Shown here piece after piece: positions 17,092 to 42,015 of a DNA stretch of 64,000 nt. A program made the translations under genes and the position numbers. Under the pieces are notes generated by a model. It saw only the letters and a list, made by a program, of their open reading frames with translations. It did not search any database and was not told where the DNA came from. The stretch is from Candidatus Nanoarchaeia archaeon (GTDB lineage Archaea > Nanobdellota > Nanobdellia > SCGC-AAA011-G17 > JAUYJU01). The stretch lies in the NCBI GenBank assembly GCA_030700155.1, contig JAUYJU010000027.1, positions 147,066 through 211,065 of the forward strand. The letters are read 5' to 3'. The stretch's first letter is position 1, and each line of letters starts with the position of its first letter.

Positions 17092-17715
17092 ATGGTAGAT
17101 TTCGACAGCATCAAAGATGCATTTTTAAAAGTTAAGGAAGATATTCAACGTTTAGAAAAAGAGCTAGCAGAAGCTAAAAAGGCTAATTTAGAACAAAAAG
17201 AAGCCATTTTAGCCTTAAATAAGAAAATCGGTAACCTTTTAAGTTCTGATAAAAGTTTAGAGTTAAATAACAACTTTTTAGAAGAAAGTTCCATAGGAAA
17301 TGATGGGGTTCTTTCGACATCGACGGTTTCGACAGTAACGCCTTCGACAACATTTCGACAGTCTTTCGACAGCAACATCGACGACAACCCCATAGTTGCA
17401 GATATTAAAAAGAAATTCCAAAGTCTCACAGAAAGGGAATTTGCAGTTTTTGCTGCAACCTACCAATTAGAAGAGGAATTTGGCTCACAAGTGACCTATG
17501 CAGATTTAGCTGTAAAACTCTCACTTTCTAGATCTTCAATCAGGGACCACGTAGGAGAGCTTTTATTGAAGAAAGTTCCACTAATTAAACACCAGGCAGG
17601 AGATCGTAAGGTCTCACTTTCTATAAAAAAAGACTTTAGGGACCTGAATGTTATGTCTCAAATCCTCACTTTTAGAGGTTCCCTAGCAAATCAACGTCAA
17701 CTCTCTTCTTTCTAG
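17092..17715 (+). CDS. Coiled-coil protein with a C-terminal sigma-70-region-4-like HTH, putative regulator
   Basis: N-terminal coiled coil (QRLEKELAEAKKANLEQKEAIL). The C-terminus LTEREFAVFAATYQLEEEFGSQVTYADLAVKLSLSRSSIRDHV resembles sigma-70 region 4 / LuxR. The 5' region carries TTCGACA heptamer repeats. Confidence 0.4.
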   Translation: MVDFDSIKDAFLKVKEDIQRLEKELAEAKKANLEQKEAILALNKKIGNLLSSDKSLELNNNFLEESSIGNDGVLSTSTVSTVTPSTTFRQSFDSNIDDNPIVADIKKKFQSLTEREFAVFAATYQLEEEFGSQVTYADLAVKLSLSRSSIRDHVGELLLKKVPLIKHQAGDRKVSLSIKKDFRDLNVMSQILTFRGSLANQRQLSSF

Positions 17716-17858
17716 GATTATTTGAAACCTCACTTTTTGATTTTTGATACTTTTGGCCTATAGAATGAGTCAATATACCCACTAATTTTGATCTAAATCA
17801 CCTAAATATTAAACTCTAAACCCTCACTTTCTAACTTTATTTTAATTTATACTTATTT

Positions 17859-17929
17859 ATTAGGTATTTACTTACATAGTAGTATTAATACTTAACATAT
17901 AAGTATAATATACCTACATAATAAGTAAA
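17859..17929. repeat. 71-bp direct repeat, copy 1, containing the 12-bp palindrome AGTATTAATACT
   Basis: Read identical by eye to 18034..18104. The palindrome is at 17881..17892. Confidence 0.8.
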
Positions 17930-18033
17930 AACCATTAAAAACGCCCAATTACATCCAAATTACCGTAGATCTTATGTTATTTTTTGATATATTTACTCTC
18001 ACTTTTGATTACATTTAGATTATAATCTTACAA

Positions 18034-18104
18034 ATTAGGTATTTACTTACATAGTAGTATTAATACTTAACATATAAGTATAATATACCTACATAATAAG
18101 TAAA
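18034..18104. repeat. 71-bp direct repeat, copy 2, containing AGTATTAATACT
   Basis: Read identical by eye to 17859..17929. The palindrome is at 18056..18067. A third palindrome copy, TAAGTATTAATACTTA, is at 19347..19362. Confidence 0.8.
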
Positions 18105-18164
18105 TTACCCTCACTTTCACCACTTCTTTTTTAGCTACAAACCAAACAAACCCTACAATTTAAT

Positions 18165-18537
18165 GCGTCGATCACGTCTATAGACGCGTCGTAGACGCGT
18201 CCATTCACTCACTTTTAGTAAAATTCGCAACCGGAAATCTTCCGAACGGCATTTCTCATGCCTGCTCAGAAACCAATAAACTAACTCCCCGCTTCTTCTG
18301 GGGCTCACTTTCTTAATCCGGAAATCTTCCGAACGACTTTTTTAGGTGTTGGTGCCGCCTAATTTTATTTAACCCACAGACTGTCTAGACTCCCCTTTTC
18401 AAATCCGGAAATCCTTCAGAACACCAGAAATTCTCAGGAAACTGTAACCAAGTAGCAAGTACAAAATTAGAACGCGTCTACGACATGTCGTCGACGCGTC
18501 TATAGACGTCTTAGACGCGTCGTAGACGCGTCCAAAA
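18165..18537. repeat. GC-rich structured non-coding region: paired ACGCGT/GACGCGTC palindrome clusters flanking three CCGGAAATCTTCCG inverted-repeat units spaced about 87 bp apart
   Basis: The left cluster at 18165..18202 and the right cluster at 18471..18533 share CGTCTATAGACG plus AGACGCGTCGTAGACGCGTCC. IR units lie at 18231, 18318 and 18405. The third is degenerate. Confidence 0.75.
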
Positions 18538-18570
18538 AGTTTATATTCTAGCAAATACTACTATTTTAGC

Positions 18571-19245
18571 ATGGCTATACTATCAATATTTGCTAAGAAG
18601 AGCCCATCTGAAGGCTTAGAACAAAAATTAGCAGTTATAGACCGAAATATTTTCAATTCTTTTAGTGCAGTCAAAGAAGATTTTAGATCAATCAAAAGAT
18701 GGATAGAACATTTTGATGAAATCGACAAAAAACATGACATAGAAATATATGAATTAAAAGGCGAACTTAGATATCTTCGAACAACCTTAAGGGAAGTTCG
18801 CGATCAACAAGAAGAATTACGATCAAGCAGGCTTCATGAATCTCCCCCAAGGTATTATGAAGCACATCAGCAAAAAAGACAACCAATAGTAGAGGATATA
18901 GTCGAAGCAGAAGAGTTTGAGATTGTACCTCAAGTACAAACTCCAGTCAAAGTTGATATGGATCAATTTACTGATACTCAAAAAGCCATTTTTTCTAGGT
19001 TGGGAATCATACAAAAAGAAAGTTCTCAACCCTGGATCCCGCTTAAACATTTGGCTCATGAAGTTTATCCGGAAAAAGAGTACAATGATGTTCGTTCTAC
19101 ATTATCGGAATATATGGGGTTGTTATCAGACGCAGGCTTAATTAAAAGAACAAGAAAAGGAAAACAAACTTTCGTTTCTGTTTCTGAAAAAGGAAAACAA
19201 TTATTTGCTGATAACAGAAAGAAATTAAAACCTAAAGTAAAGTAA
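18571..19245 (+). CDS. Coiled-coil protein with a C-terminal winged helix, putative DNA-binding (regulator or Rep-like) protein
   Basis: N-terminal heptad-repeat region (IEIYELKGELRYLRTTLREVRDQQEEL). The C-terminus has wH-like LSEYMGLLSDAGLIKRTRKGKQTFVSVSEKG. The gene sits immediately downstream of the iteron-like region. Confidence 0.4.
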   Translation: MAILSIFAKKSPSEGLEQKLAVIDRNIFNSFSAVKEDFRSIKRWIEHFDEIDKKHDIEIYELKGELRYLRTTLREVRDQQEELRSSRLHESPPRYYEAHQQKRQPIVEDIVEAEEFEIVPQVQTPVKVDMDQFTDTQKAIFSRLGIIQKESSQPWIPLKHLAHEVYPEKEYNDVRSTLSEYMGLLSDAGLIKRTRKGKQTFVSVSEKGKQLFADNRKKLKPKVK

Positions 19246-19297: not shown

Positions 19298-19317
19298 AAG
19301 AATAAAACTTTTAAGCA
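19298..19317. repeat. 3'-end motif AGAATAAAACTTTTAAGCAA, copy 1 of 3
   Basis: The same motif recurs at 19931..19956 and 20582..20603, each at the stop of a consecutive + strand gene. Confidence 0.7.
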
Positions 19318-19434
19318 AAAACTAAAAGATTTAGTATACTACATATTAAGTATTAATACTTATTATGTAAGGATAACTATTAAAATAAGAGTAGTAAAGT
19401 TAAATTTATAACAAACCTATGCACTATATATCCT

Positions 19435-19929
19435 ATGGGAATTGAACTTAACATTCGAGAAATGAAAGAAGAAAAACCCAAAGATGATTCATTATTTCAA
19501 TGGGGCCTATTAATAGGTCTGATTGCTGGGGGAGTAGTGGGTGGTGTTTTAGGTTACAATCTTGGAAAATGGGTGCCAAAGCCAGCATCTACAAGCTCCA
19601 TAAAACAAATAAAAGGCTATCAGGGAACTGTTAAAGAGGTTTATACTGTTAGTTATAATCGTGCAGATAATTATTTACCGTTCAGAGTAAGCATTGCTCC
19701 AGAGGAAAAAACACCAAATGCAGAATATCTTATCAAATGTATAGATCGCCCAAATAGGGGTAGTTCTAAAATAAATTTATCCAAGCTAGAGGAGTTAATT
19801 AAGCCAGAAATGGGCATTGTGTTAAATCTAGATCAAGCATTACACCGTAAAGAATTATTAATAGACCCTACAAAGATCCTGAGTGTCGGAGGAATAAATA
19901 AAGATTTACTATTAATTAAAATAAAATAA
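19435..19929 (+). CDS. Membrane-anchored hypothetical protein
   Basis: A single TM helix (WGLLIGLIAGGVVGGVLGY), then a soluble domain. Confidence 0.3.
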   Translation: MGIELNIREMKEEKPKDDSLFQWGLLIGLIAGGVVGGVLGYNLGKWVPKPASTSSIKQIKGYQGTVKEVYTVSYNRADNYLPFRVSIAPEEKTPNAEYLIKCIDRPNRGSSKINLSKLEELIKPEMGIVLNLDQALHRKELLIDPTKILSVGGINKDLLLIKIK

Positions 19930-20064
19930 TCAAGAATAAAACTTTTAAGCAATTCTAATAACTTACTGCATAAGCGTAAACGTATCGTATAATAACCATT
20001 ATCAGGCATTGTCTAGTACCATATATACGAACCTTTTTATACTAATTTTGCGTATAATACTATT

Positions 20065-20586
20065 ATGACTGGGGATTATATTCTTTTACCAAAACAAACT
20101 CCAAATGGAAGACCGATGGTAAAATGCGTAAAGTGTGGCAAAATCAAAGAACATCATGCAAGGGGGCATTGTAACTGGTGTTTTAGAAAGTACTTATGGA
20201 CACCCAAAAAGATAACCTGCAAGGAGTGCGGTAGAGAAAGAAACCATAAAGCTTATGGATTATGTGGCGGATGTCATGTTAGGCTAAAACATTATGATAA
20301 CGTCCTTCGTTATAATGCAAAAAAATATCACAACATTGAGTTAGAATATTATCGAGAGATTACCAAGAAGTGCGACAATTGTAATTTTTCTAAGATTGTT
20401 AATATTCATCATTTAGATGGCAATACAAGAAATAATGATAGAAAAAATGTGGTCGGGTTATGTCCAAATTGTCATAAAATGATTCATATGTATAAATATT
20501 TTGAAGAAATTAAAGAAAGTCTAGCAGAGAAGGGCTTTGATGTTTCAATGGTTCATCCTTCAAACTATGTGAATCACAGAAAATAA
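20065..20586 (+). CDS. HNH endonuclease with N-terminal zinc-ribbon repeats
   Basis: Two C-x2-C...H/C modules (CVKCGKIKEHHARGHCNWC and CKECGRERNHKAYGLCGGCH). The C-terminal HNH motif is NIHHLDGNTRNNDRKNVVGLCPNCHKMIH. Confidence 0.65.
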   Translation: MTGDYILLPKQTPNGRPMVKCVKCGKIKEHHARGHCNWCFRKYLWTPKKITCKECGRERNHKAYGLCGGCHVRLKHYDNVLRYNAKKYHNIELEYYREITKKCDNCNFSKIVNIHHLDGNTRNNDRKNVVGLCPNCHKMIHMYKYFEEIKESLAEKGFDVSMVHPSNYVNHRK

Positions 20587-20611
20587 AACTTTTAAGCAAT
20601 TCTCAAAGATT

Positions 20612-20633
20612 AAATCTTCACTTATACGAACTA
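20612..20633. repeat. 22-bp direct repeat ATCTTCACTTATACGAACTAAA, copy 1
   Basis: Identical to 21222..21243. The 12-mer core TTATACGAACTA recurs at 30454..30465, immediately 5' of the integrase ATG. Confidence 0.7.
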
Positions 20634-20636
20634 AAT

Positions 20637-20975
20637 TCACTCAAGTTCAATAATTAACTTACGATCTTGAGGATGGATATATGCCTCTTTACCCTCTTTC
20701 AGTTTTAAGTATTCAGCAAGCTTTTTTGGAATCCTTACAGCAAGAGAATTGCCGCTCTTGGATATTTTAGTTTTTTGTCCAATACCCCAAATCCCTTTTT
20801 CTTTAGCAATCTTTTCAATTTTTTCCACATATTTAGAATCTGTAAATAATTCTCCGCACTCAGAACACTTTTCTCCAGGATAAGTTCCCAAATCTACACC
20901 AAACAATACATGTTTTTCTTTCACAGGTTTCAATTTTCCTTTTTCACAGATAGGACATATTTCCATATTTACCAC
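20637..20975 (-). CDS. Zn-ribbon plus AbrB/MazE-like (swapped-hairpin) domain protein, putative antitoxin
   Basis: N-terminal CPICEKG...CSECGE zinc ribbon. C-terminal GNSLAVRIPKKLAEYLKL matches the SpoVT/AbrB fold. It overlaps the downstream small ORF by 7 bp. Confidence 0.45.
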   Translation of the reverse strand: MVNMEICPICEKGKLKPVKEKHVLFGVDLGTYPGEKCSECGELFTDSKYVEKIEKIAKEKGIWGIGQKTKISKSGNSLAVRIPKKLAEYLKLKEGKEAYIHPQDRKLIIELE

Positions 20976-21172
20976 CTTGGTTTTACAGTTATAATGTAAT
21001 GCACATCTTTTATTTTCTTGTATACTACACTAAAATAACCGTATTCACTAACAAGCTTATCTGGCGCTTGTCTAAATTTGCTTCCACCTTTAATTGCCAA
21101 TTCAACTTCTTTCATTGAAATGCCCCTATCGATCATTTTTTCTTCAGCATGCTTACTTAGTTTTATGATCAA
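20969..21172 (-). CDS. Small DUF4258-like protein, putative toxin partner
   Basis: The 67-aa sequence MIIKLSKHAEEKMIDRGISMKEVELAIKGG resembles the conserved N-terminus of the DUF4258 RelE-fold family. Confidence 0.3.
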   Translation of the reverse strand: MIIKLSKHAEEKMIDRGISMKEVELAIKGGSKFRQAPDKLVSEYGYFSVVYKKIKDVHYIITVKPRW

Positions 21173-21221
21173 AGTAACACCGGTAATACCAGTAAGTACT
21201 AGTTATATTTAAACTTTTCCA

Positions 21222-21243
21222 TCTTCACTTATACGAACTAAAA
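21222..21243. repeat. 22-bp direct repeat ATCTTCACTTATACGAACTAAA, copy 2
   Basis: Identical to 20612..20633. The two copies bracket the 610-bp TA cassette. Confidence 0.7.
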
Positions 21244-21250
21244 ACAATAT

Positions 21251-21526
21251 TTATACTCTCTTAAATAAATTTCCAACATTATCATAAGCTTCTTTTCTAT
21301 GCTTTAACGCAATGCATACTAAAGTACCAGCTTCAATAAAGAAGAAAAGTCTATAGTCTCCCAGTCTTAATTTTCTTAATGGCTTAAATCCATGCAGTTC
21401 TTGGCTAATCTTAGTTATTCTATCACTATTGGCTATTAATTTTTCCTCTATCTTTTTTAGATAAGTTGCATGTAAATTATACTTTTTAAGATCGGTTTTT
21501 ATGTACTCTACAAACCTTACTAACAT
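21251..21526 (-). CDS. RelE/ParE-family toxin
   Basis: 91 aa with LRKLRLGDYRLFFFIE...CIALKHRKEAY, the typical RelE core. It abuts the upstream small ORF (stop and start adjacent). Confidence 0.55.
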   Translation of the reverse strand: MLVRFVEYIKTDLKKYNLHATYLKKIEEKLIANSDRITKISQELHGFKPLRKLRLGDYRLFFFIEAGTLVCIALKHRKEAYDNVGNLFKRV

Positions 21527-21757
21527 TTATTTCATCTCTGCAATTATCTGTTCAGAAGTTAAGAGTTTGGTTTTACCTTTCTTTAAGGCATTAATTCTTT
21601 CATTTAGAAGGTCTTTAGTTTCTTGGTTTAATTCTAGTTTATCCTCAATAAGTCGACTTACTACCTCGTTATAGGTCTCACTCTCAATTATTTTGAAATT
21701 ATCTAATTGCTCTACGACCTCCGATTTCAGTTTGATTTGTCTACTTGAGTTTACCAT
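21527..21757 (-). CDS. Putative antitoxin of the RelE-type pair
   Basis: 76-aa helical protein immediately upstream of and contiguous with the RelE-like gene. Confidence 0.4.
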   Translation of the reverse strand: MVNSSRQIKLKSEVVEQLDNFKIIESETYNEVVSRLIEDKLELNQETKDLLNERINALKKGKTKLLTSEQIIAEMK

Positions 21758-21837
21758 GGTAGATTACAGTGTTCCAGTCTATTTAAAGCTGTCTATACCC
21801 CAAATTATTATAAAGTCAAATCATTTCAATAAAGTTA

Positions 21838-22130
21838 TGACACAAGATAAACCAAAACAAGATTTAGCAGATATTTGTCTACAAGAAGCAGCACTTGCAA
21901 CAATCAAACTCCCAAAAAGCCAACCGATCAATGCAGAGATTCACATTTCAAGTCTCACTGAACTTTCTCCAGAAGCAAGAAAAAATTTAACAAAAACACC
22001 ATATCAAATTCAACCAGAAAAAGAAAAAAGTGAGACTTTAAAAGATCAACAAAAAGACTGCCCCCACTATATGTCAAGTGCAGCAGCATTATACAGAAAA
22101 CCAGGCGAAGAACTACCAGAAGATCTTTAA
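21838..22130 (+). CDS. Hypothetical protein. The start is trimmed from the track ORF 21693..22130
   Basis: MTQDKPKQDLADICLQEAALA... The longer track ORF would overlap the antitoxin gene antisense. Confidence 0.25.
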
Positions 22131-22438
22131 GCTGCCTTAGAGTTAGGATTTATTGATAGTATCTCTTCTTCTCCAACATCTTCCCCAGATTCTTTCAATA
22201 ACTTCCAAGTCTTTTTTAAAGAAATCTCAGCAGCTTTTGTAAGTTTTTCATTCTGCATCAGATAAGATATAACCTTTTTATTCTTAGAACTGATAAAACC
22301 ATTGTACATCTCTCTTAACTGTATAAATAAGGTAATTACCTGAAATTTAGCCACTAAATTTTTATTTGCGAATTCAAACAGTTCAGCACATTCCACTAGA
22401 ATAGTTTCAATACCTACTGGAGCAATTGGTGGAACCAT
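22127..22438 (-). CDS. Hypothetical protein
   Basis: 103-aa ORF with no recognisable motif. Confidence 0.25.
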   Translation of the reverse strand: MVPPIAPVGIETILVECAELFEFANKNLVAKFQVITLFIQLREMYNGFISSKNKKVISYLMQNEKLTKAAEISLKKTWKLLKESGEDVGEEEILSINPNSKAA

Positions 22439-22485
22439 ATTAAACTAAACACAAAAGTGAGCTTTAAACCTTTCTATTTTAGATA

Positions 22486-23028
22486 TCATGGGCACACAAA
22501 AAAGTACAAATCTCCAGTATCAATAGACAAGTGATAATTTATCTGCAATAATTGTTTTATTAACATAAATGTCAAAGTAATTGAAATTAAATTTAAAACT
22601 ATTGAAGTACAAGTTGCCCATTTATATTTCTCATTATAACCACTTATCCAAAGTATTAACAAAGAAAAATTAACAATTAAACTTAAAACAACCAACCACA
22701 TTACAACTTTAAAATCATTACGAATTCCTGCCAGTCTAATCTCTTGTCTTTCGGTTTTTGTCAAACTGCAAAATTCAGTTATGTTAGGTCTCACTTCAAC
22801 CCCATAGTCATAAGGAATTGAAGTAAATATTTTCCATAAATTTAAATTGCTTATTTTAGATGAGGATAAAGAGAAACTCACTTCCTCACAAGAAATATTT
22901 TTTTCTTCACATGCAGTTAAATGTCCCCCTTCATGATAATTAATTACAAACTTATCAAAAAGCAGGTTTATTGGAACAACTAAGATAGTCACTAAGATAA
23001 ATATTCCGAGGAGATAGTATTTATCCAT
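22486..23028 (-). CDS. Small integral membrane protein with an HExxH motif, possible membrane metalloprotease-like
   Basis: HEGGH at residues ~33-37 lies between TM helices. There are 4-5 TM segments. An 11-nt G tract sits 6 bp upstream of the ATG. Confidence 0.3.
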   Translation of the reverse strand: MDKYYLLGIFILVTILVVPINLLFDKFVINYHEGGHLTACEEKNISCEEVSFSLSSSKISNLNLWKIFTSIPYDYGVEVRPNITEFCSLTKTERQEIRLAGIRNDFKVVMWLVVLSLIVNFSLLILWISGYNEKYKWATCTSIVLNLISITLTFMLIKQLLQINYHLSIDTGDLYFFVCP

Positions 23029-23034
23029 ACTTTG

Positions 23035-23045
23035 CCCCCCCCCCC
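23035..23045. repeat. Homopolymeric C11 tract (G11 on the coding strand of the downstream gene)
   Basis: Eleven consecutive C in a ~30% GC genome, 6 bp upstream of the start codon at 23028. Confidence 0.8.
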
Positions 23046-23056
23046 GATTATAACTC

Positions 23057-24205
23057 TCATTTTTTAACTCTCCTTTTTTTAAACCATAATCTTACAAATA
23101 TCAAAAACAAGATTACAGTTAATATAAATGGTAAAATTACAAGTTCACTCCAGAAACTTTCCAAAGAGATTCTAAGCCCCTTTGGTTTTTGTATTTCAGC
23201 AGCTTTTGTCGGAATCTGTTCTTTGGGTTTTACTGCTGGAGTTTCTCCCCCAATTGCCTCTCCACCAGGAGCTACTCCTTCAGGTTGACTAGTCTTAACT
23301 ATTGTTGCTGTTGGCCAATTGCTTTTTCCACCCTGTCGAGCCTGACCCGCTATTGCACCTTCTTCAAGACTGTATTCAGTAAAGTGGGTAACGTTGAAAA
23401 TGGCTGTTCCACCAGAATAACTAATTATTGTACAAATTGTATCTGGACATTCCACATCGTCTTTCAAAATTATTGGATCTGAAAAAGTTAAATTATATAA
23501 TTCAATAGTTGCAGACTTATTTAATTGTATTAAATCTTCACTACTAATCAAAATTCTGTTGTTGCTTATTATAGTGTAAGCACTTAAATTAATTAATAAC
23601 CGCGCCTCATCACCATACCCATAAGTATTATCACTTAAATTTATAACTTCACCAAATGTAATTTTACCAAAATTAGGAGAATGTAAGATCATATTTTCTA
23701 AATTTTGTTGCTCACTTTTATTTAAAGCAGAAAAGTTAGTGGTATCAGCAATAGGATCTTCGTATTCAGTAGGTAATTCAACATCTTCACCAAGAGTTTC
23801 ACTAACAAAGAAAATAACAGTTACGCTGCTTAATTGATTAAAGCTATCATTTGCATAAACTCTAAGTGTATTTGAACCTTCACTTGCATTAAATGTAAAA
23901 TTTGCAGTTAGTGTAGTATTTGCACCACCATTTAAACTATAAAATCTACTATCCAGATTAGAATCATTAATTGTAAAATTAAATAATAGATTTAACCCAT
24001 GATTATAAGTCAAATTCCTTGGGGAACTTATATTTATTGAAGGAAAATCATCAGTAACTGTAATATTTACCGCGGCATCAGAAGTAACAGCGTAAGTATC
24101 TATCAAAGACCCGCCAATTATTTCTATAAGATTAAAATTAGAAAGTAAAGCCAAACTAACTAAAATAAATAATGCTGCAACTATTATTCTTTTGTCTCTT
24201 TCCAC
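23057..24205 (-). CDS. Cell-surface protein (N-terminal signal/TM, C-terminal TM anchor, many N-x-S/T sequons)
   Basis: N-terminal hydrophobic segment. C-terminal LVILPFILTVILFLIFVRLWFKKRRVKK. Numerous NxT/NxS sites. Confidence 0.4.
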   Translation of the reverse strand: MERDKRIIVAALFILVSLALLSNFNLIEIIGGSLIDTYAVTSDAAVNITVTDDFPSINISSPRNLTYNHGLNLLFNFTINDSNLDSRFYSLNGGANTTLTANFTFNASEGSNTLRVYANDSFNQLSSVTVIFFVSETLGEDVELPTEYEDPIADTTNFSALNKSEQQNLENMILHSPNFGKITFGEVINLSDNTYGYGDEARLLINLSAYTIISNNRILISSEDLIQLNKSATIELYNLTFSDPIILKDDVECPDTICTIISYSGGTAIFNVTHFTEYSLEEGAIAGQARQGGKSNWPTATIVKTSQPEGVAPGGEAIGGETPAVKPKEQIPTKAAEIQKPKGLRISLESFWSELVILPFILTVILFLIFVRLWFKKRRVKK

Positions 24206-24215
24206 GTTTCATTTT

Positions 24216-24800
24216 TTATTTTTTCTTCCTTACAAATAATAGGATTAGTACCAATATAGCTACTATTAAAAATACTAAGAAGGTTTTTGTTCCAAATTCA
24301 GTAAATGCTTTACTACTAACAACTTCAGCAGTTACAGGATTAGTTTCTCCAGCTGGACTTACCACAATAGGTATTCTAGTTCCTACAGCAGTTGTAAACT
24401 GAACCATATTACCTGCTTCTTCCTCTCCTAATTGACTGAATAAAACAGCAACTTCATATGTCTTACCAAAAGGAGCATTATTAGGGATAGTTATCTTAAT
24501 TTTTACATCAACATCTTTTTTACCAAAAGGAACTTTGTAGATTTCATTACCCACTAAACTAGCAATATCAGAACCGTCTCCTATCTTAGCACCCAATCTA
24601 ATGTCTTCTTCTCCAACCATATTTTGTAAGATTAAAGATATTACTTTTGTTTCCCCTGGTTTCATACTTAATACATGGCCTTCCCAATAAGGGCTAGTTA
24701 CACCAAAAGCACTAACTAATGGAAGTATAATTAACAAAATTGAGATACTCATAATTGCAAATCTAATTTTATTTTTCATCATTGTATACTTACCGTCCAT
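24216..24800 (-). CDS. Cell-surface protein with N-terminal signal and C-terminal TM anchor
   Basis: C-terminal FLVFLIVAILVLILLFVRKKK. A beta-rich ectodomain. Confidence 0.4.
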   Translation of the reverse strand: MDGKYTMMKNKIRFAIMSISILLIILPLVSAFGVTSPYWEGHVLSMKPGETKVISLILQNMVGEEDIRLGAKIGDGSDIASLVGNEIYKVPFGKKDVDVKIKITIPNNAPFGKTYEVAVLFSQLGEEEAGNMVQFTTAVGTRIPIVVSPAGETNPVTAEVVSSKAFTEFGTKTFLVFLIVAILVLILLFVRKKK

Positions 24801-25795
24801 AACCCAACATTTCCTGTGGAATATGCTTGTGGTGTTGCACCTGCAGTTACTTCTGTAATACAGAAGAATATCTGTTCTTGTCCAATTGTATTATCATTGA
24901 TACTATTGTTACCTCTTGTCAAGTTTCCATCTGGACCGGTAACAACAGCAGTATTATTTATAAGTTGTGTGCTTACTGAATCAACTTTATTACATTCAAC
25001 CGGTGGTGATCCACCAGCATTAGTGTCAACACTAAAGTTACTTACATTCAAGTACCTTGACTCCACAGTTTCACCTTGTAAGTTGACTGCAGTAATATTC
25101 AGATTACCTATTGTTATGTTCTTATTTCCAGTATTATTTATAGTTATTGGATCATTACTTGAAGTTTGATTTGTAGCTCCAACTGCAACTGATGACCATG
25201 TTAATGAACTAGGTGCCATTACCATTGCAGCAGTTTGTTGTAATGTGAAATTACTTGAAGTATTAGTTCCAACTGATCCACCGATGTCTCTGACTGTTGC
25301 ATTTACGGTAATATTTCCTGGAGCATCAAAAAACCAAATATTAATTGCGCAAGTATAATTAGCAGTACTACTGTTAAGGTCTGCAACAAATTCACAACTT
25401 GAATTAAATCTTATTGCCCCGCCCTCAGTTTGAGTTACATCAAATTGCGCTTGAGCAGAAGTATCATTTAAATCAGTAACCCCATCTGAGTCAGTAGCTA
25501 GGAAAGAAAATTCTACTGCTGTTGTGCTTGCTTCAGTAATACTCTGCGCACCTATTATTGAAACCGCATTTACACCAGGTGCAACACTACTTACAGTTAT
25601 ATTAACAGAAGTATTAGCATTTTGTGCCATACCAGTTATTAAATTACCCTGAGAATTTTCTAAAATATTAACCATACTTGACCAGAATAAAGGTAAAGAT
25701 AAAAATAAAATTGCTAATAAGACGTATAATGAATCATGATTGCCCTTAGGCATCTCACCACTTCCTTTAACCATCAAATTTACATAATTATTCAT
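24779..25795 (-). CDS. Surface protein paralog sharing the C-terminal ~250-aa domain of the giant protein
   Basis: The C-terminus ...ITINNTGNKNITIGNLNITAVNLQGE...AGATPQAYSTGNVGLWTVSIQ is near-identical to the C-terminus of the 1329-aa protein. Confidence 0.5.
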   Translation of the reverse strand: MNNYVNLMVKGSGEMPKGNHDSLYVLLAILFLSLPLFWSSMVNILENSQGNLITGMAQNANTSVNITVSSVAPGVNAVSIIGAQSITEASTTAVEFSFLATDSDGVTDLNDTSAQAQFDVTQTEGGAIRFNSSCEFVADLNSSTANYTCAINIWFFDAPGNITVNATVRDIGGSVGTNTSSNFTLQQTAAMVMAPSSLTWSSVAVGATNQTSSNDPITINNTGNKNITIGNLNITAVNLQGETVESRYLNVSNFSVDTNAGGSPPVECNKVDSVSTQLINNTAVVTGPDGNLTRGNNSINDNTIGQEQIFFCITEVTAGATPQAYSTGNVGLWTVSIQ

Positions 25796-25819
25796 ATTTA
25801 TAAACCTTTTTAAATTGTT

Positions 25820-28800
25820 TTATTGTATACTTACCGTCCATAAACCAACATTTCCTGTGGAATAAGCTTGTGGTGTTGCACCTGCAGTTATGTTTACTAA
25901 GCAGAAGTATACTTCTTCTTGTCCAAGACTAGCAGAGTTGTTACCTCTTGTCAAGTTTCCATCAGCTCCAGTTATTACACTTGTAGCATTTACTAATTGG
26001 ATTCCACCACATTCTACAGGAGGACTTCCTCCAGTGGCAGTATGCACAGTAAAGTTACTTACATTCAAGTATCTACTTCTGATTATTTCACCTTGCAAGT
26101 TAATTGCAGTAATATTCAAATTACCGATTGTAATATTTTTATTTCCAGTATTATTTATTGTCAAAGGATCATTCGTAGATGTTTGATTACCAACACCAAT
26201 GCTTAATGCATCCCAAGTCAATGCACTTGGTGCCATTACCATTGCAGCAGTTTCTTGTAAAGTGAAATTACTTGAAGTATTTGCACCAGTTTCAGCACTT
26301 AAATCTTTAATGGTGGCATTTACAGTCCAATTTCCAGCAGCATCAAAGTACCATAAATCTACTGTGCAAGTATAGTTAGCAGTTGAAGCATTAAGATCTC
26401 CGACAAGTAAACAACTTGTATTGGATCTTGTTGTTTCTCCAATAGCTTGGAATTCTGCAGTAGCTGAGCTATCATTCAAGTCATCCACTCCATCTGAATC
26501 TGAAGCTAGGAATGAGAACTGCACAGCAGTTGTACTTGCTTCAGTAATACTCTGCGCAGCAATTACTGAAACGTTGTGTGCAGTAGGAGCAACATTTGTT
26601 ATTTCAGTTACAGTAAATATTGAGTTACTTATAGCGAAACTACAATTGCTATCTCCATCACACCATTGGAAGTTCCAAGTATATCCACCAGCGACAACAT
26701 TTGAAACATTTATACTAGTTACAGCAGTAGTTCCTGTAACACTTACAGTTTGATTAGCAACCCAACTTCCAGAGATGTTGTGATATAATGTAGCATTAGC
26801 TAATCCTCTTGCATCACTTGCATTTGAATCAAATCTCCAAGTAGTTGAAGTATTTGAAGTCGCATTTGGCGGACTAGTTAAATTAATTCCACTAGGAGGA
26901 TTATTTATAGTGAAAGTAAAGTTAGCATCTGATTGGTTGCAGTTTCCAGCAGCATCGCACCACTGCACATTCCAAGTGTAACCACCATCAACAATATCTG
27001 TAACATTCATAGTTGTTACAACTCCACTAGTTCCACTTACAGTTACAGTTTGATTCGCAGTCCATGATCCAGAGATATTGTGGTATAATGTAGCGTTTAC
27101 CAATCCCAACGCGTCGCTTGCGTTGGATTCAAATCTCCAAGTTCTTGAAGTGTTTATTACCTCATTTGCGGGACTAGATAGGTTTACATCGCTTGGTCTT
27201 GCTGAGTCTACAGTGAAAGTAAAGTTAGCATTTGATTGGTTGCAATTTCCAGCAGCATCGCACCACTGCACATTCCAAATATATCTTCCATCTATTACAT
27301 TTGAAACATTTATTATTGTTCTAACTTGACTTGTTCCACTTACAGTTACAGTTTGATTCGCAGTCCATGATCCAGAGATATTGTGGTATAATGTAGCATT
27401 CACAACTCCAACACTATCGCTAGCATTAGATTCAAATGACCAGGTAGTAGACCTATTCAATTCATTGTTAGGTGGCATTGTTAAGTTAACTGCACTTGGT
27501 CTTGTATTATCAGCAGCTTGAACATAGGTTACATTAAAGAATAATGCATCAATAACCATACCATCTCTACCACCATTTGAAGTTCTTGTAACTCCAATTC
27601 TTGCTACAGCCTTAGTACCACTACCGAAGAAACTATCACAAGTCCAAGTTTCACCAATGTTAGTTACATTTTGACAGATTAATACTGGTGATGTGGTTCC
27701 ACCATTGAAACAAGTTGTATTCACATTAGTAAATGAAGCATTTGCATCTGCATCTACCTTTACAATACATTGCGTAGGGTCAGTAGCATCAACATTCCAA
27801 TCATAACATAACCAAACATCTCCAACAGAGTCACAATCCGTAACTGAAGAATTGCCAGTTTGCATATGGACGTTTCCCCAAACATTCTTATTGTAAGTGG
27901 TAGTTTCAGTGCTACCGCCATCACAAAGCCTATCTGCAGTACCGCAGGTTCCAGGATAAGTACCGGCACACGCATCATCAAAGGTATCTGCATTTGCAAC
28001 CGAGCTACCTAAACTACAAGCTGTAGCCCCAAGATCCGTAGTTCCATCAGGGAAAGCTTGAGGGTCAATTATATGGTCAAATTCCAAGTAAGCATAATCT
28101 AAGCCTTCTTTGTTAACTATCTTTAAATCAAAGGCATCTGAACTTCCTACCAAATTGGTTAAATAAATTGTATAGTAAGTTGTATTAGTAATTATTGGGA
28201 ATTCAGCAATCTTTGTAGACGAATTGTAATAATAAACTTCTAAAGTGGTGTTTAATCCCTGAGTATTTCTAGCATAAACTGTAATATCATTAGTTGAATT
28301 AAGTTTTTGTTCAAATGTAACTCTGACATATTCACTATGGTTGATTGGTCCAGACCAGATATTATCTAAAGATTTAGTCTCGTTGTAAATCTCTGAAATT
28401 AACACATAATTACTATCCAAGTGACTAGCTTTAGTTATTTCAATTACAATATCAAAGGTCTGATTACTTAAGTGAGGAGTTACCCAATAGATTTCATCTA
28501 CCAATCCATTGTTGTTATTATCTTTATACTCAGTTATTGCATGGGTTTGTCTTGAACCGTTTACAATCCAGTATAATTTGATTGAAGATTGTTTGGCATC
28601 AGCTATATTTGTGAAAGTAGAAACATTTTCATAATTCATTGCAGAATAAATTATAATTCTCTTTCCATCAGAAGTTTCTTCTTCAAATATCTGAGGAGCT
28701 TCAGTTTCGTATTCAATTTCTACTTCTTCAATTTCTTGTTCTACAACTAAGGAAGTTGCATTAGGTTCTTCAAAGATTGCAAAGCCAGTTATGAATGCAA

Positions 28801-29809
28801 AGAATCCAGTTATTGGATTAGGCGAACTAATTACATCAGAAGTTATATCTACAGTTTCATTGTTCTCTACTTTCTTTATAGATAATATTGAAACTTCTTT
28901 AGGCAACTCTATTTCTAAGTTAGTTGTCTTTTCTTTTAGTTTTATAATCTTCTTCCATTTAACTGGCTGACCAATAACCGCTCCATATTGTATTGTTTGC
29001 TCAGTTTCAACATCAGCATTAATTATAGTCAGGTTAATAGGAACTTCTTCAGTTACATTTTCAACAATAGTTTCATCTACTTCAGTTGTAACATTAGTTA
29101 TATTTGTAACTTCGCATCTTACCTTAGCATCTATCTTACTAATGATTACTTGATCATTAGAGTCATACACATACGCATGCAGCGCCTTACTTCCTTCTTT
29201 ATCCGTTGTCTGACAGTAAGTGAATGGACTGTTCAATTCTTGATCTACCTGAGGCAATGCCTTAGTTCCGGAGATATATCCTTTGGCATAACTTCCATTA
29301 CTCCACGAAATAGTCTCACATACAGTAAAGTTAGTTCCATCATAATCACAATAGTATTCTGTTATGTTCACAGTAGCACTGATACCAGTTTCATTAATTT
29401 CACTCAAGTTTCCATCTGTAACATTGAATACTGCAAATCCAGTAATATCAGAATCTAAGTAGAATAAACTTAATCCTAACATTCCGAATACAGCAAAGAT
29501 TAATAGTGCAGTTAACAATACCTTATTGTTTTCTGTTTGTTTTATCTTATCTTCACATATCTTTAAGTGTTCTCTATAAACCCTTATGCAGTTGTCATAA
29601 TAATTATTCCATTGTTCTAAAGTTCTGTTCTTTAATACATTCTTTAATGTAGATTCATATTCTTCATACTTGACACTACCCCTTGCAAATTGAGCGTTTA
29701 ATTTATCCACAAATCTATTTAGCTTAATCTTTGCATTTTCGCAAACTTCAATATTCCTGATTAGTCTAATCTTTCTCTTTTCCAGACTAGCTAGTTTATT
29801 GTTTTGCAT
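25820..29809 (-). CDS. Giant (1329 aa) N-glycosylation-rich surface protein or adhesin with a type II membrane topology
   Basis: A ~95-aa cytoplasmic coiled-coil N-terminus, a single TM helix (LLTALLIFAVFGMLGLSLFYL), a Cys-rich region, 3x ~100-aa tandem repeats (NATLYHNISGSW...ANFTFTV), and a C-terminal domain shared with the adjacent paralog. Confidence 0.6.
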   Translation of the reverse strand: MQNNKLASLEKRKIRLIRNIEVCENAKIKLNRFVDKLNAQFARGSVKYEEYESTLKNVLKNRTLEQWNNYYDNCIRVYREHLKICEDKIKQTENNKVLLTALLIFAVFGMLGLSLFYLDSDITGFAVFNVTDGNLSEINETGISATVNITEYYCDYDGTNFTVCETISWSNGSYAKGYISGTKALPQVDQELNSPFTYCQTTDKEGSKALHAYVYDSNDQVIISKIDAKVRCEVTNITNVTTEVDETIVENVTEEVPINLTIINADVETEQTIQYGAVIGQPVKWKKIIKLKEKTTNLEIELPKEVSILSIKKVENNETVDITSDVISSPNPITGFFAFITGFAIFEEPNATSLVVEQEIEEVEIEYETEAPQIFEEETSDGKRIIIYSAMNYENVSTFTNIADAKQSSIKLYWIVNGSRQTHAITEYKDNNNNGLVDEIYWVTPHLSNQTFDIVIEITKASHLDSNYVLISEIYNETKSLDNIWSGPINHSEYVRVTFEQKLNSTNDITVYARNTQGLNTTLEVYYYNSSTKIAEFPIITNTTYYTIYLTNLVGSSDAFDLKIVNKEGLDYAYLEFDHIIDPQAFPDGTTDLGATACSLGSSVANADTFDDACAGTYPGTCGTADRLCDGGSTETTTYNKNVWGNVHMQTGNSSVTDCDSVGDVWLCYDWNVDATDPTQCIVKVDADANASFTNVNTTCFNGGTTSPVLICQNVTNIGETWTCDSFFGSGTKAVARIGVTRTSNGGRDGMVIDALFFNVTYVQAADNTRPSAVNLTMPPNNELNRSTTWSFESNASDSVGVVNATLYHNISGSWTANQTVTVSGTSQVRTIINVSNVIDGRYIWNVQWCDAAGNCNQSNANFTFTVDSARPSDVNLSSPANEVINTSRTWRFESNASDALGLVNATLYHNISGSWTANQTVTVSGTSGVVTTMNVTDIVDGGYTWNVQWCDAAGNCNQSDANFTFTINNPPSGINLTSPPNATSNTSTTWRFDSNASDARGLANATLYHNISGSWVANQTVSVTGTTAVTSINVSNVVAGGYTWNFQWCDGDSNCSFAISNSIFTVTEITNVAPTAHNVSVIAAQSITEASTTAVQFSFLASDSDGVDDLNDSSATAEFQAIGETTRSNTSCLLVGDLNASTANYTCTVDLWYFDAAGNWTVNATIKDLSAETGANTSSNFTLQETAAMVMAPSALTWDALSIGVGNQTSTNDPLTINNTGNKNITIGNLNITAINLQGEIIRSRYLNVSNFTVHTATGGSPPVECGGIQLVNATSVITGADGNLTRGNNSASLGQEEVYFCLVNITAGATPQAYSTGNVGLWTVSIQ
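26609..27505. repeat. Three tandem ~300-bp DNA repeats encoding the ~100-aa Ig-like repeats of the giant surface protein
   Basis: Protein repeats at residues ~769-868, 869-968 and 969-1067. The spurious + strand ORFs 26421..26753 and 27078..27329 are mutually similar, confirming DNA-level repetition. Confidence 0.7.
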
Positions 29810-30341
29810 CCTTCTCCATAGAATTTTTATAAGTTGTCCAGATTGTACGTTCGTCTCTCTTCAGCAACAATGCAATTTCATGATAGGATAATTGATAAGA
29901 ATCTTTCAGATAAGCGACAATATTTTCTAAAACTCCAAGCTTTTTATTTTTCAAAATTGAAGCTGGAATTAAATAATTGGATTCTAAATTTTCAAATTTA
30001 ATCGGAAGTTTGTTTTTGCTTGAATTATAAGCCTGCCAAACAGATTTAGAATCACGATCAATCAAAGAAGCTATTTTTTTATTTTTAAAGCCAAGGTTTT
30101 CTTTTAGATATTTACAGATGCTTTCTAAAGCCCCCAATTCTTTGGAAAATATAGAAACCGGAATTAAAACATCAGATTCTAATTCATTAATTAATTCAAC
30201 AGCAGACTTTTTTTCTTTTAATTTATCATATAGTGCTTGGAATCTTAGAAACTCAACAAAATCTTTCTTTTCTTCTTGCTTAATCGGACTAGTAAAATCT
30301 ACATCTTTCCTGTTTTTTGTACTCTTTTTTCTATTTAACAA
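29796..30341 (-). CDS. Tandem-duplicated sigma-70-region-4-like HTH protein, putative regulator of the surface-protein operon
   Basis: Two ~55-aa repeats (LIPVSIFSKELGALESICKYLKENLGF...IASLIDRDSKSVWQAY and LIPASILKNKKLGVLENIVAYLKDSYQLSYHEIALLLKRDERTIWTTY). It overlaps the giant gene start by 14 bp. Confidence 0.4.
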   Translation of the reverse strand: MLNRKKSTKNRKDVDFTSPIKQEEKKDFVEFLRFQALYDKLKEKKSAVELINELESDVLIPVSIFSKELGALESICKYLKENLGFKNKKIASLIDRDSKSVWQAYNSSKNKLPIKFENLESNYLIPASILKNKKLGVLENIVAYLKDSYQLSYHEIALLLKRDERTIWTTYKNSMEKDAKQ

Positions 30342-30465
30342 AGTAAATATTACTATTTAGATAGGTACAATATATAAATGTGCCTATTAATAGTCTATTC
30401 AAATAAGTATAATATCTATTTAACTAAGTAGAAGACCTTTTATATCTAATCGCATTATACGAACT

Positions 30466-31290
30466 ATGGATAAAAAAGAGGTTATTCAGAAAGTCCAGAC
30501 AGAGCTCAAAATTCAGGGAAAAAGTCCAAGAACCCAAAGGATGTATACTTTTTTCAATGAAAATTTCTTAGATTTTATTAAAAAGTCTCCAGACTCAGTA
30601 ATCCAGGATGACATTAAATCCTTCTTCGCTTATCTTTTATCAGACAAAAAATATAATGCTTCTTCAGTTGCATTAGCAAGATGCGCATTACGTTTTTGTT
30701 ATGATGAAATATTGGGAAAAAATATTGTAACTAATATAAAAACTCCAAAATTTCAAAGAAAAATCCCAGAAATTCCATCTAAAACAGAGATTAGATTAAT
30801 GTTAGACCATTCCAAGAACTTAAAAAATAAAATAATGATAGAATTTCTTTACTCTTCAGGCTTAAGAGTTTCAGAATTAGCAAATCTAAAAATAAAAGAT
30901 TTAAATCTAGAGGAAAAAACCGGTTTATTAAAATCCGGAAAGGGTGGAAAAGATAGATTTTTCATAATGTCGGAGTTATTAGTTAAAGATTTAAAAGAAT
31001 ATTTAAAAAATCATAAAGAAGAATATTTATTAATTGGTTTTGACGGCCCAATTTCAACTAGGTCCATACAAAAATCAATTCAAAGAACTGCAAAAAGAGC
31101 AAACATACAAAAGAAAATTTATCCGCATCTACTAAGGCACGCTTTTGCAACGCATTTATTAGAGGATGGTGTAGATATAAGGCATATTCAGGTTTTGCTT
31201 GCGCATTCAAATCTTCAAACTACTGCTTGGTATACTCAAGTTTCAACAAAAGAATTAAAAAAGATTAAAAGTCCTTTAGATACAATTTAA
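30466..31290 (+). CDS. Tyrosine recombinase/integrase (XerC/D-like)
   Basis: N-terminal SAM-like domain. Catalytic R...HxxR...Y signature: HLLRHAFATHLL and LLAHSNLQTTAWYTQV. Confidence 0.8.
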   Translation: MDKKEVIQKVQTELKIQGKSPRTQRMYTFFNENFLDFIKKSPDSVIQDDIKSFFAYLLSDKKYNASSVALARCALRFCYDEILGKNIVTNIKTPKFQRKIPEIPSKTEIRLMLDHSKNLKNKIMIEFLYSSGLRVSELANLKIKDLNLEEKTGLLKSGKGGKDRFFIMSELLVKDLKEYLKNHKEEYLLIGFDGPISTRSIQKSIQRTAKRANIQKKIYPHLLRHAFATHLLEDGVDIRHIQVLLAHSNLQTTAWYTQVSTKELKKIKSPLDTI

Positions 31291-32156: not shown

Positions 32157-32846
32157 ATGAGAATGAATGTAAGATTAGCGGAACTTTTTGGAGCAATGAT
32201 GGGAGATGGTTGTTTATCTTTAATTAACAACAAATCAGAAAATAGAAAAAGAAAAATAGCTCTTCTAACGGGACATTTAAAACACGATTACAATTATTAT
32301 ACTAGAGTAATTCAACCAATAGTCAAGGAAAATTTTAAGATAAATGGTTATATCAAAAAACGCGAAAAAAGAAATTGTATTTATTATGAAATAGGTGGAG
32401 TCGTATTTGACTTTCTAAATAATGAAGGATTTCCCATAGGGTTAAAAACCAAACTTTTTATACCTCAAAAAATTTTAAGAAAACGTCAATTAGCTAGGGC
32501 ATGTGTAAGGGGCATTTTTAATACCGCTGGAACTATTTATCGAAGATATAGAAAAAAATATAACAAACATCCAAAAATCTACAACTATCAAGTTATTCAA
32601 TTTAAATTAAACAGTAAAAGAACAATAAAACAAATTAAAGGTGTACTTGACAGGATCAATATTAATTCAAATAGAATTATTAGGGATAAGAAAAGTTATG
32701 TACTTAGAATAACGGACCAAACAGGCATTAAAAAATTCATGGAAAAAATCCGTCCAAGTAATAATTACCACGTAGAAAGATATATAAATCATATTTCAGA
32801 CATTTCTGACAAAGGGCTCGTAGCTCAGCCTGGTCAGAGCACTTGA
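32157..32846 (+). CDS. Free-standing LAGLIDADG homing endonuclease
   Basis: The N-terminal LAELFGAMMGDGCLS is a canonical LAGLIDADG motif. A second degenerate copy is LARACVRGIFNTAGTI. The annotated 3' end overlaps the 5' part of the downstream tRNA. Confidence 0.6.
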   Translation: MRMNVRLAELFGAMMGDGCLSLINNKSENRKRKIALLTGHLKHDYNYYTRVIQPIVKENFKINGYIKKREKRNCIYYEIGGVVFDFLNNEGFPIGLKTKLFIPQKILRKRQLARACVRGIFNTAGTIYRRYRKKYNKHPKIYNYQVIQFKLNSKRTIKQIKGVLDRININSNRIIRDKKSYVLRITDQTGIKKFMEKIRPSNNYHVERYINHISDISDKGLVAQPGQST

Positions 32847-32927
32847 AAGTCTTAAAGGCTTGGTGAAGCTCTTATGCCATCAGACGGAGCGACCAAGGGG
32901 TCGAGGGTTCGAATCCCTCCGAGCCCG
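32814..32927 (+). tRNA. tRNA gene about 40 nt longer than canonical (intron or introns likely, possibly at non-canonical positions). Anticodon not assigned
   Basis: Acceptor GGGCTCG pairs with CGAGCCC. D-arm GCTC-AGCCTGGTCA-GAGC. T-arm GAGGG-TTCGAAT-CCCTC. There is extra sequence between the D-arm and the variable region. I could not fold a canonical 7-nt anticodon loop with U33 by hand. Confidence 0.55.
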
Positions 32928-41996: not shown

Positions 41997-42015
41997 AAAT
42001 TAATAAAAAATAAAA

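Follow-up and report, generated by a model that had tools for sequence, protein, structure and literature searches.

In archaea, the tyrosine recombinase XerA and its site dif are regarded as a single-copy housekeeping system. Here, a stretch of 64,000 nucleotides (referred to as the window) from the 32% G+C chromosome of Candidatus Nanoarchaeia archaeon (contig JAUYJU010000027.1) was analyzed, in which an array of small genes ahead of xerA is interspersed with two kinds of short sites, a 33-bp site termed M and a 28-bp dif-like site termed D. Copy counts refer to these 64 kb plus related loci. Both motifs are very probably functional, clade-conserved sites of an xerA-linked variable locus. 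There is an even chance that the arrangement goes back to tandem Xer-mediated insertions, similar to those of integrative mobile elements exploiting Xer recombination (IMEX), into an ancestral M-D-xerA module of DPANN archaea (Diapherotrites, Parvarchaeota, Aenigmarchaeota, Nanoarchaeota and Nanohaloarchaeota), a few kb from cdc6.

Examples of IMEX are the phages CTX, VGJ and TLC at the dif1 site of Vibrio and the element LME-1 at the dif site of XerL in Legionella (PMC5357621; PMC9765430). The plasmid dif (pdif) modules of Acinetobacter carry 28-bp Xer sites, often contain toxin-antitoxin genes and are shuffled between replicons (PMC6449649; PMC13141974). Streptococci and lactococci possess xerS/difSL, i.e., one recombinase with a palindromic site beside its gene (PMC5357621). 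Integrons reported from archaeal metagenome-assembled genomes (MAGs) require an IntI domain and folded attC sites (Ghaly et al., PMC9668308). In a 2021 review of archaeal tyrosine recombinases, dif is treated as single-copy and the term IMEX is not used, and a full-text literature search yielded no paper naming both DPANN and XerA.

The first motif, the 18-mer AATAAAACTTTTAAGCAA, was present in the window as three exact copies (19301-19318, 19935-19952 and 20582-20599, all on the + strand), every one of them at the xerA-linked array. When up to three mismatches were allowed, five matches were obtained as compared to 1.05 expected, and none of 100 shuffled sequences reached five. Copies 1 and 2 have the 21-mer AAGAATAAAACTTTTAAGCAA in common (starts 19298 and 19932), unlike copy 3, the context of which reads GAAAATAAAAC.... 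The initial annotation had reported three such copies as well as a pair of 22-bp repeats; all of these exist, with coordinates shifted by 1-3 bases. It had also located the motif at the stop of the preceding gene or directly downstream of it. This applies to copy 2, which starts 3-6 nt past the stop of 19435..19929, and to copy 3, which contains the TAA stop of 20065..20586, and only loosely to copy 1, which starts 53-56 nt past the stop of 18571..19245. A TTCT extension was likewise found at copies 2 and 3 and is absent from copy 1. About 60 gene ends were checked in the window, and the motif occurs at these three alone. The downstream genes each possess their own TFB recognition element (BRE) and TATA box about 27-32 nt ahead of the ATG. 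The sole intergenic M-like sequence in the window beyond the xerA-linked locus has one extra T (AAAACTTTTTAAGCAATGAG...) and lies at 42404-42418 on the - strand, in a 468-nt gap (41997-42463) near the cumulative GC-skew minimum (about 41-42 kb); the remaining near-matches are intragenic.

For comparison, about 90 related loci of Woesearchaeota and Nanoarchaeota (designated by L numbers) were assembled. A scan of one genome per species was performed with the 18-mer, the figures of which refer to the matches listed. Among these, the bacterial matches were chiefly single chance matches, most of them without the right-hand extension of the motif. Thirteen archaeal loci among the matches listed bear this extension, namely 12 from Woese-, Pace- or Nanoarchaeota and one labelled Methanosarcinales (34% GC). 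These 13 loci have a longer consensus in common and often contain several copies 45-650 nt apart; most of them are syntenic with the window and encode homologues of p148, p89, p207, p224 or XerA. The closest DNA and protein matches, among those listed, were also to MAGs labelled Woesearchaeota, Pacearchaeota or Nanoarchaeota. In viral contigs, the 18-mer gave 15 matches, none of them with the M-type right-hand extension. The longer M pattern gave eight matches there (six independent), none with genes of the XerA locus, and this number is compatible with chance and was left unused. One of the eight lies on a terminase-bearing contig of unassigned host.

In order to remove selection bias, 80 metagenome loci were fetched by alignment to p148 alone. 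Their gene order was cdc6 - p87 - LonB - p55x - p148 - (p89) - p207 - p224 - variable small open reading frames (ORFs) - xerA - ... - PAC2, and the locus was located 5-10 kb from cdc6 in all sufficiently long contigs. With up to two mismatches, 56 occurrences of the M core AAAACTTTTAAGCAA fall in the interval that runs from the p224 end to 2 kb beyond xerA (98 kb), and 10 in the other 504 kb. Thus, its density is 0.57/kb versus 0.020/kb, a 29-fold enrichment in the p224-xerA interval. The core is conserved (16-18 nt exact) between genomes whose orthologous proteins show 30-47% identity. A generic terminator or promoter was rejected, since the motif is confined to this locus and lies at varying distances from the next gene. 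The shared terminator that the initial annotation had considered does not hold as a genome-wide signal: three of about 60 gene ends in the window carry the motif, and its confinement in the relatives is 29-fold. A local transcriptional or architectural role for M may nevertheless exist.

M is a 33-bp imperfect palindrome of 13-7-13 architecture, TTAAAACTTTTAA-GCAAnnn-TTAAAnnTTTTA, the conserved left half of which corresponds to the 18-mer. Since positions outside the search pattern are conserved, i.e., T at -1, TTAAA at +18 to +22 and TTT at +26 to +28, M was taken to be the full palindrome. The left arm is strongly conserved and the right arm more weakly, and the asymmetric spacer gives the site polarity. 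In the window, M1 (19302..19334, +; ATAAAACTTTTAA-GCAAAAA-CTAAAAGATTTAG) is a complete imperfect palindrome with arms complementary at 10 of 13 positions. M2 (19936..19968, +; ATAAAACTTTTAA-GCAATTC-TAATAACTTACTG) retains the left arm and spacer next to a degenerate right arm. M3 (20583..20615, +; ATAAAACTTTTAA-GCAATTC-TCAAAGATTAAAT) has the same spacer as M2, and its degenerate right arm merges into the 22-bp repeat. M1 and M2 enclose p164 (19435..19929, +), a membrane-anchored ORFan without homologue in any related locus compared (634 bp repeat-to-repeat). M2 and M3 enclose the gene for a 173-aa HNH-type Zn-finger nuclease (20065..20586, +), the stop codon of which lies within M3 (unit of 647 bp).

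In the relatives, the ORFs between M copies are mostly unrelated across genomes and, by Pfam, nearly all ORFans. Homologues of the HNH protein (46-51% identity) were found in the arrays of L182, L188 and L201, at other positions and in other orientations, and ORF127 adjoins xerA in L165 and is inverted and located elsewhere in L201. An upstream ORF on the same strand frequently stops at a TAA within M. The next start codon follows M at a variable distance (0-214 nt), and in about one third of cases M is oriented independently of the neighbouring gene.

The second motif, the 22-mer ATCTTCACTTATACGAACTAAA, occurs exactly at 20614-20635 (DR-A, +) and 21221-21242 (DR-B, +), 607 bp apart, with 0 copies expected by chance. 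The repeats end sharply, as the flanking sequence does not align between the copies. The perfect direct repeats reported initially were thus confirmed, with their starts corrected from 20612 and 21222 to 20614 and 21221 and the segment length from 610 to 607 bp. The gene pair described between them was also recovered: toxin-antitoxin pair 1 (20637..21172, -) comprises an AbrB/MazE-type antitoxin with an N-terminal Zn ribbon (20637-20975; PF04014, 1.3e-6) and a DUF4258 toxin-like protein (20969-21172; PF14076, 2.6e-8), and it has its own BRE/TATA at about 21196-21212. DR-B lies between this promoter and the stop of ParE, which is encoded with DUF7557 in an operon at 21251-21757 (-). Both pairs, DUF4258 with MazE/AbrB and ParE with DUF7557, score above the Pfam gathering cut-offs and belong to the type II toxin-antitoxin systems. 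As noted initially, the core of the 22-mer recurs abutting the ATG of the tyrosine recombinase gene: the 12-mer TTATACGAACTA is found again at 30455-30466, with its final base doubling as the A of the xerA ATG. A fourth copy of 9 nt, TATACGAAC, was located at 20024, just upstream of the HNH gene promoter. The exact 22-mer gave no match in viral and metagenome collections.

The nature of this repeat emerged from the relatives, in which an 11-6-11 palindrome, D, was found upstream of xerA, with the pooled arm consensus AGTTCGCATAA-N6-TTATGCGAACT. The sequence TTATACGAACT of the window is a perfect D right arm, and DR-A reads as AT, the spacer CTTCAC, this arm and AAA. In 714 kb of non-redundant loci, 18 D sites matching at least 12 of the 14 core positions were detected, while shuffled sequences averaged eight. 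Seven of these sites are found no further than 75 nt from the xerA start, in several cases across it, as compared to about 0.05 expected, and another six lie within 160 nt of M. Within 100 nt of M, eight D half-sites were counted as compared to 0.86 expected, an enrichment of about 9-fold. The distance from the M core start to the D arm amounts to 37-38 nt in the window (M3 to DR-A: 37 nt), L193 and L213. In L193, a full D, AGTTCCACTAA-TCTCTC-TTATACGAACT, directly follows M and a convergent gene (composite at L193 5004-5055), and the 22-mer is identical to the L193 spacer and right arm at 17 of 20 positions with one gap. The dif site of E. coli, GGTGCGCATAATGTATATTATGTTAAAT, served as reference for D; the 18 D sites are identical to this sequence at 15-21 of 28 positions. 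For the Thermococcales dif, 14-18 of 28 positions are shared (Cortez et al., PMC2958812).

D most plausibly represents the dif-type site of this XerA, with which it would form an xerA/dif module comparable to xerS/difSL (PMC5357621). The 12-mer is probably an XerA/dif-type arm, and the meaning of its recurrence derives from these comparative data, not from window statistics. Conservation, position and architecture of the sites are well supported. The two motifs had been presented as one system; M and D turned out to be different site types.

The recombinase itself (xerA, 30466..31290, +; 274 aa) consists of an N-terminal SAM-like domain (PF13495, 7e-17) and a catalytic domain (PF00589, 1.3e-41). 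It scored 236 bits with the NCBIfam model NF040815 (recomb_XerA_Arch), the cut-off being 220, and is therefore an archaeal XerA equivalog. In the XerA alignment, its catalytic set (R, K, H, R, H, Y) is complete. The D-type site proximal to xerA (30438..30465, +; TTTTATATCTA-ATCGCA-TTATACGAACT) has a perfect right arm, which abuts the ATG, and a degenerate left arm, and it matches 10 of 14 core positions.

In the relatives, the last M is located 105-490 nt ahead of the xerA start, with D in between. In the window, the order is M3, DR-A, the 607-bp cassette, DR-B, a 9.2-kb block (21243..30454) and the same arm at the xerA ATG, and all repeats are direct and on the + strand. The cassette encodes no recombinase. 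The 9.2-kb block has no counterpart in the p224-xerA interval of relatives, and no homologues of its genes were found in related loci. It contains the ParE/DUF7557 operon, small ORFs together with four secreted Asn/Thr-rich surface-type proteins (23057-29809, -) and a helix-turn-helix (HTH) protein (29796-30341, -). Three direct D half-sites in this order are the pattern expected of tandem integration by recombinase-less circles.

The following course of events may be proposed. The ancestral place of D would have been at the xerA start and just downstream of M, and this M-D-xerA unit would have been split by two tandem insertions, each bounded by direct D half-sites. The first would be the 607-bp DUF4258/MazE cassette from DR-A to DR-B, and the second the 9.2-kb block from DR-B to the arm abutting the xerA ATG. 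Circular DNA with a dif mimic and without a recombinase of its own would have been integrated by the host XerA, and every integration would have regenerated the conserved arm on either side, as in bacterial IMEX. Recombination between DR-A and DR-B, which have identical spacers, could re-excise the toxin-antitoxin cassette. There is slightly less than an even chance that the cassette and the 9.2-kb block entered via XerA-mediated recombination. The single-gene units of p164 and the HNH nuclease are bounded likewise by M, where XerA, another recombinase or homologous recombination might act. M itself may be an accessory or regulatory site, perhaps for the neighbouring winged-helix proteins; that it is a recombination site in its own right is slightly less likely.

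Degenerate D-type remnants lie between M2 and the HNH promoter (19982..20032, +). A degenerate D, GTATCGTATAA-TAACCA-TTATCAGGCAT, follows M2 at 19982-20009 with 10 of 14 core positions, and the arm TATATACGAAC at 20022-20032 abuts the BRE/TATA box of the HNH gene. The latter layout of an arm followed by TTTATA was also observed in L138, L145 and L202. Both remnants suggest older events.

Among the described systems, the locus would work most like IMEX arrays and dif modules operating on the single-recombinase XerA/dif of archaea, with the 33-bp M and the two conserved winged-helix neighbours as additional components. As with IMEX, recombinase-less elements lie in or beside a dif-type site and between direct dif-like repeats with one arm conserved and the other degenerate, tandem arrays occur, and the recombinase is the chromosome-dimer resolvase of the host. 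In the window, a cassette without recombinase is found between such repeats, and the 12-mer that they contain also delimits the 9.2-kb block. In contrast to IMEX, the setting is archaeal, with one XerA and without FtsK, the site is near xerA and cdc6 instead of the terminus, a 607-bp toxin-antitoxin pair and a surface-protein block take the place of phages as cargo, and M has no IMEX counterpart. The sites, their conservation, their positions and the variable cargo are seen directly in the sequences; binding of D by XerA, all recombination events and their direction are inferred.

The locus resembles pdif modules in its small discrete gene modules and Xer-type sites, and pdif replicons carry many sites. 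However, the Acinetobacter sites are inverted (XerC/D-D/C), plasmid-borne and dependent on XerC and XerD, whereas the window contains direct + strand repeats with recognisable half-sites and one recombinase in a conserved chromosomal context (cdc6, PolD, LonB, PAC2); it was not classified as a pdif module. As in xerS/difSL and archaeal XerA/dif, there is one recombinase, and in the relatives the palindromic site beside its gene has the 11-6-11 architecture and about half or more of the positions of bacterial dif; in the window, the right arms alone are recognisable. AT-rich conserved flanks also surround the Thermococcales dif (PMC2958812). Unlike these systems, in which known dif sites are single-copy and, in Thermococcales, away from xerA, several D copies or half-sites and a cargo array are present here.

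Several observations weigh against an origin by XerA-mediated insertion. First, the recurrence of the 12-mer is by itself not significant, as 14% of shuffled windows match at least 12 nt of the 22-mer (p about 0.14). Second, no complete D palindrome exists in the window; agreement with the consensus is limited to about 4 of 11 positions in the left arms at DR-A, DR-B and next to xerA. Third, the spacers differ, with ATCGCA at xerA and CTTCAC in the repeats, a difference that simple conservative recombination does not predict for the 9.2-kb block. Fourth, direct functional repeats should be unstable, and strain-level presence/absence polymorphism was not found by exact-protein look-ups, which returned two short Logan contigs with identical arrangement from one sample (SRR13727534). 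Fifth, the clearest strain-level breakpoint among relatives (L166/L169/L170) has no M or D site, and some strain differences in related arrays break at gene ends without either. Finally, M flanks conserved genes as well, namely xerA and, in four genomes, a PadR-like gene, and its left arm (CTTAAAAsTTTTAAG) is similar to the BRE/TATA consensus of the locus (AAAGsTTTAAATA); because of these two features, M may be transcriptional or architectural.

With regard to the two Logan contigs, L001 (SRR13727534_179575), the sole further public contig covering the array, is 100% identical to window positions 19932-22130 and starts on the first base of the 21-nt M2 repeat. This start would be expected of a k=31 assembly graph if a variant junction were located there, or may be due to chance, and is taken as a hint. 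At its other end, L001 stops where the stop codons of two convergent ORFs overlap. The second contig, L018, indicates that the organism is present at low coverage in this sample.

In an alternative, the sites act as regulatory or architectural punctuation, M and perhaps D being bound by p207, p224, the PadR-like protein or an autoregulating XerA. The sites would be operators, insulators or bidirectional terminators, the content between them would vary by indels and homologous recombination, and the 22-bp repeat would be a duplicated intergenic piece. Such a role would accommodate M around conserved units (M-D-xerA-M and M-padR-M), the BRE/TATA-like left arm with T4 runs on both strands, the winged-helix genes that always accompany the array and the variable junctions that lack any site. 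Several D sites directly upstream of TTTATA or over the xerA start codon also look like an autoregulatory operator. On the other hand, the distance of 0-214 nt from M to the next start, the proximal promoters of the cassettes themselves and the free orientation of M in about one third of cases speak against punctuation. Moreover, it leaves unexplained why unrelated cargo lies between the copies, why cargo families recur in other slots and orientations, and why D matches an established recombination site at up to 21 of 28 positions. This alternative was judged rather unlikely.

Taking the insertion hypothesis one step further, a DPANN lineage might have turned XerA/dif into an origin-proximal gene-capture platform, with D and M as sites, p207 and p224 as accessories and recombinase-less cargo (mini-cassettes of 0.6 kb, toxin-antitoxin pairs and blocks of several kb) that is inserted, excised, inverted and exchanged among genomes. 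This would be an archaeal duplex-site analogue of the integron that evolved independently from Xer; in this full form, the idea is speculative and unlikely to be correct.

The position of the locus 5-10 kb from cdc6 in every long-enough contig could also fit a centromere-like or chromosome-maintenance region, in which M and the CTCACTT boxes between p207 and p224 are parS-like arrays for these two proteins near oriC, accompanied by xerA/dif and addiction genes, and the cassettes are incidental insertions in a gene-poor, recombination-tolerant zone. Two or three partly palindromic repeat types do lie beside two DNA-binding proteins, and p224 showed a weak profile match to the archaeal centromere-binding protein AspA. 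With E about 0.1, this match falls short of significance; the conserved block showed no ParA/SegA-type ATPase, and the polar spacer of M and its overlap with stop codons would be needless in a symmetric centromere site. A function of this kind is improbable.

The initial annotation had likened the array to recombinase-driven cassettes with attC/attI-like logic. The cassette-like layout, the link of the sites to the recombinase locus, the dif-like arm and the variable small genes in relatives stood up, and the attC/attI logic did not. A canonical integron would consist of an IntI-type integrase, attI and attC-bounded cassettes, as in some archaeal MAGs, and the window resembles one in its small, promoter-poor ORFs, which mostly share one orientation and have a conserved site downstream of each, in a nearby tyrosine recombinase and in ORFan and toxin-antitoxin cargo, the latter being typical of integron arrays. 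However, the recombinase reached 179 bits with the integron integrase model TIGR02249 (cut-off 265), in two separate stretches and without the IntI insertion, while passing the XerA cut-off. The sites are duplex-type palindromes of 28-33 bp instead of attC sites of 55-140 nt, and the cassettes have their own promoters. Single-strand DNA folds of four motif regions on both strands gave z values of -0.64 to +1.54 in three of them, and the motifs themselves are not part of any helix; folding is unusually favourable in the M1 region alone (z about -2.8), owing to a separate palindrome downstream of the motif. Rfam returned nothing at E <=1 at the motif regions. The array does not start at an attI beside the recombinase gene: xerA is 9.8 kb from M3, and in the relatives the array is upstream of xerA with a dif-like site at the gene start. 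Since folds, Rfam and the IntI model all argue against it, the integron was rejected as very improbable. Functionless repeats produced by slippage or small local duplications in AT-rich intergenic DNA would suit a genome of 32% G+C and the insignificance of the 12-mer match taken alone, but they are barely credible given the exact 16-18-nt core kept across divergent genomes, always in the same syntenic interval, and the homologue of the 22-mer in L193.

The conserved left-hand neighbours of the array were also characterized. Both p207 (17092..17715, +) and p224 (18571..19245, +), after which the array begins, are predicted coiled-coil and winged-helix proteins, the winged helix of p207 being C-terminal. 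Homologues of p207 (29-40% identity) occur at the equivalent position in more than 30 related loci and those of p224 in 21 non-redundant related loci. Profile searches of Pfam, NCBIfam and PDB with p148, p207 and p224 yielded weak generic HTH or coiled-coil matches only; p207 gave weak HTH matches at best (Pfam, PDB) and p224 weak ArsR/AspA-type winged-HTH matches. The 855-nt non-coding gap between p207 and p224 (17716..18570) contains six CTCACTT boxes (+), two 78-nt repeats (17852 and 18027), GACGCGTC-type iterons (18165-18201 and 18482-18536) and CGGAAATCTTCCG palindromes (18232 and 18319; further copies at 2023 and 14753). In the same gap of the relatives, CTCACTT is 24-fold enriched (4.6/kb versus 0.19/kb) and exclusively on the + strand. 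The gap could be a non-coding RNA or a protein-binding array.

Rearrangements of single genes were observed among the relatives. The orientation of p224 is inverted relative to p207 in about one third of the loci (L138, L158, L166, L169, L175, L187, L191 and L126), and an inverted xerA is found in L151, L164 and L188; inversions of individual genes seem to be frequent in the region. In L151, L158, L174, L046, L076 and L025, full-length XerA is replaced by a Xer-like recombinase of about 205 aa comprising the catalytic domain only, which has M sites tightly on both sides and other repeats, AAAACGTTACA / ACGTAATAT, upstream. A PadR-like winged-helix gene with M on both sides lies just beyond xerA in L091, L151, L159 and L202 and is absent from the window. 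Related loci resemble FimB/FimE-type invertases and shufflons in the M-flanked short recombinase, in M occurring in both orientations and in the p224 inversions. Unlike in those systems, the short recombinase is absent from the window, and all three M copies of the window are direct.

The window also encodes PolD DP1/DP2, Orc1/Cdc6, LonB, PAC2 and MoxR/DUF58. DP2, the large subunit of PolD (3282-8216, -), carries an intein with a LAGLIDADG domain. After the cdc6 gene (9856-11061, -) come about 500 nt of AT-rich sequence (11.1-11.5 kb), a plausible origin. An intron-containing tRNA missed by ARAGORN was detected at 32814-32927 (Rfam, 51 bits); a free-standing LAGLIDADG ORF (32157-32846) extends into it with its 3' end. 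Within the 9.2-kb block, a run of 11 G (- strand, about 23030-23050) directly upstream of ORF 22486-23028 is situated between two membrane/surface-protein genes and represents a candidate slippage or phase-variation tract. The C-terminal 340 or so residues of a 1329-aa Asn/Thr-rich surface protein are duplicated as an adjoining 338-aa ORF (24779-25795 and 25820-26840, - strand; 74-83% DNA identity), and the same protein also contains three internal repeats of about 300 nt.

Members of the DPANN archaea have tiny genomes and a host-dependent life and are thought to rely on gene exchange, and their acquisition of genes is poorly understood. The arrangement described here suggests that the housekeeping XerA may also insert and swap genes, and a conserved hotspot with 28-33-bp sites beside xerA offers a concrete, testable route of gene gain for DPANN. 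D would be the candidate dif of the clade, reached via inserted elements as the dif site of Legionella was. Even if M is regulatory, an element of 16 nt conserved to this degree is a strong lead to a DNA-binding factor. The short M and D sites could also be tried as genetic tools.

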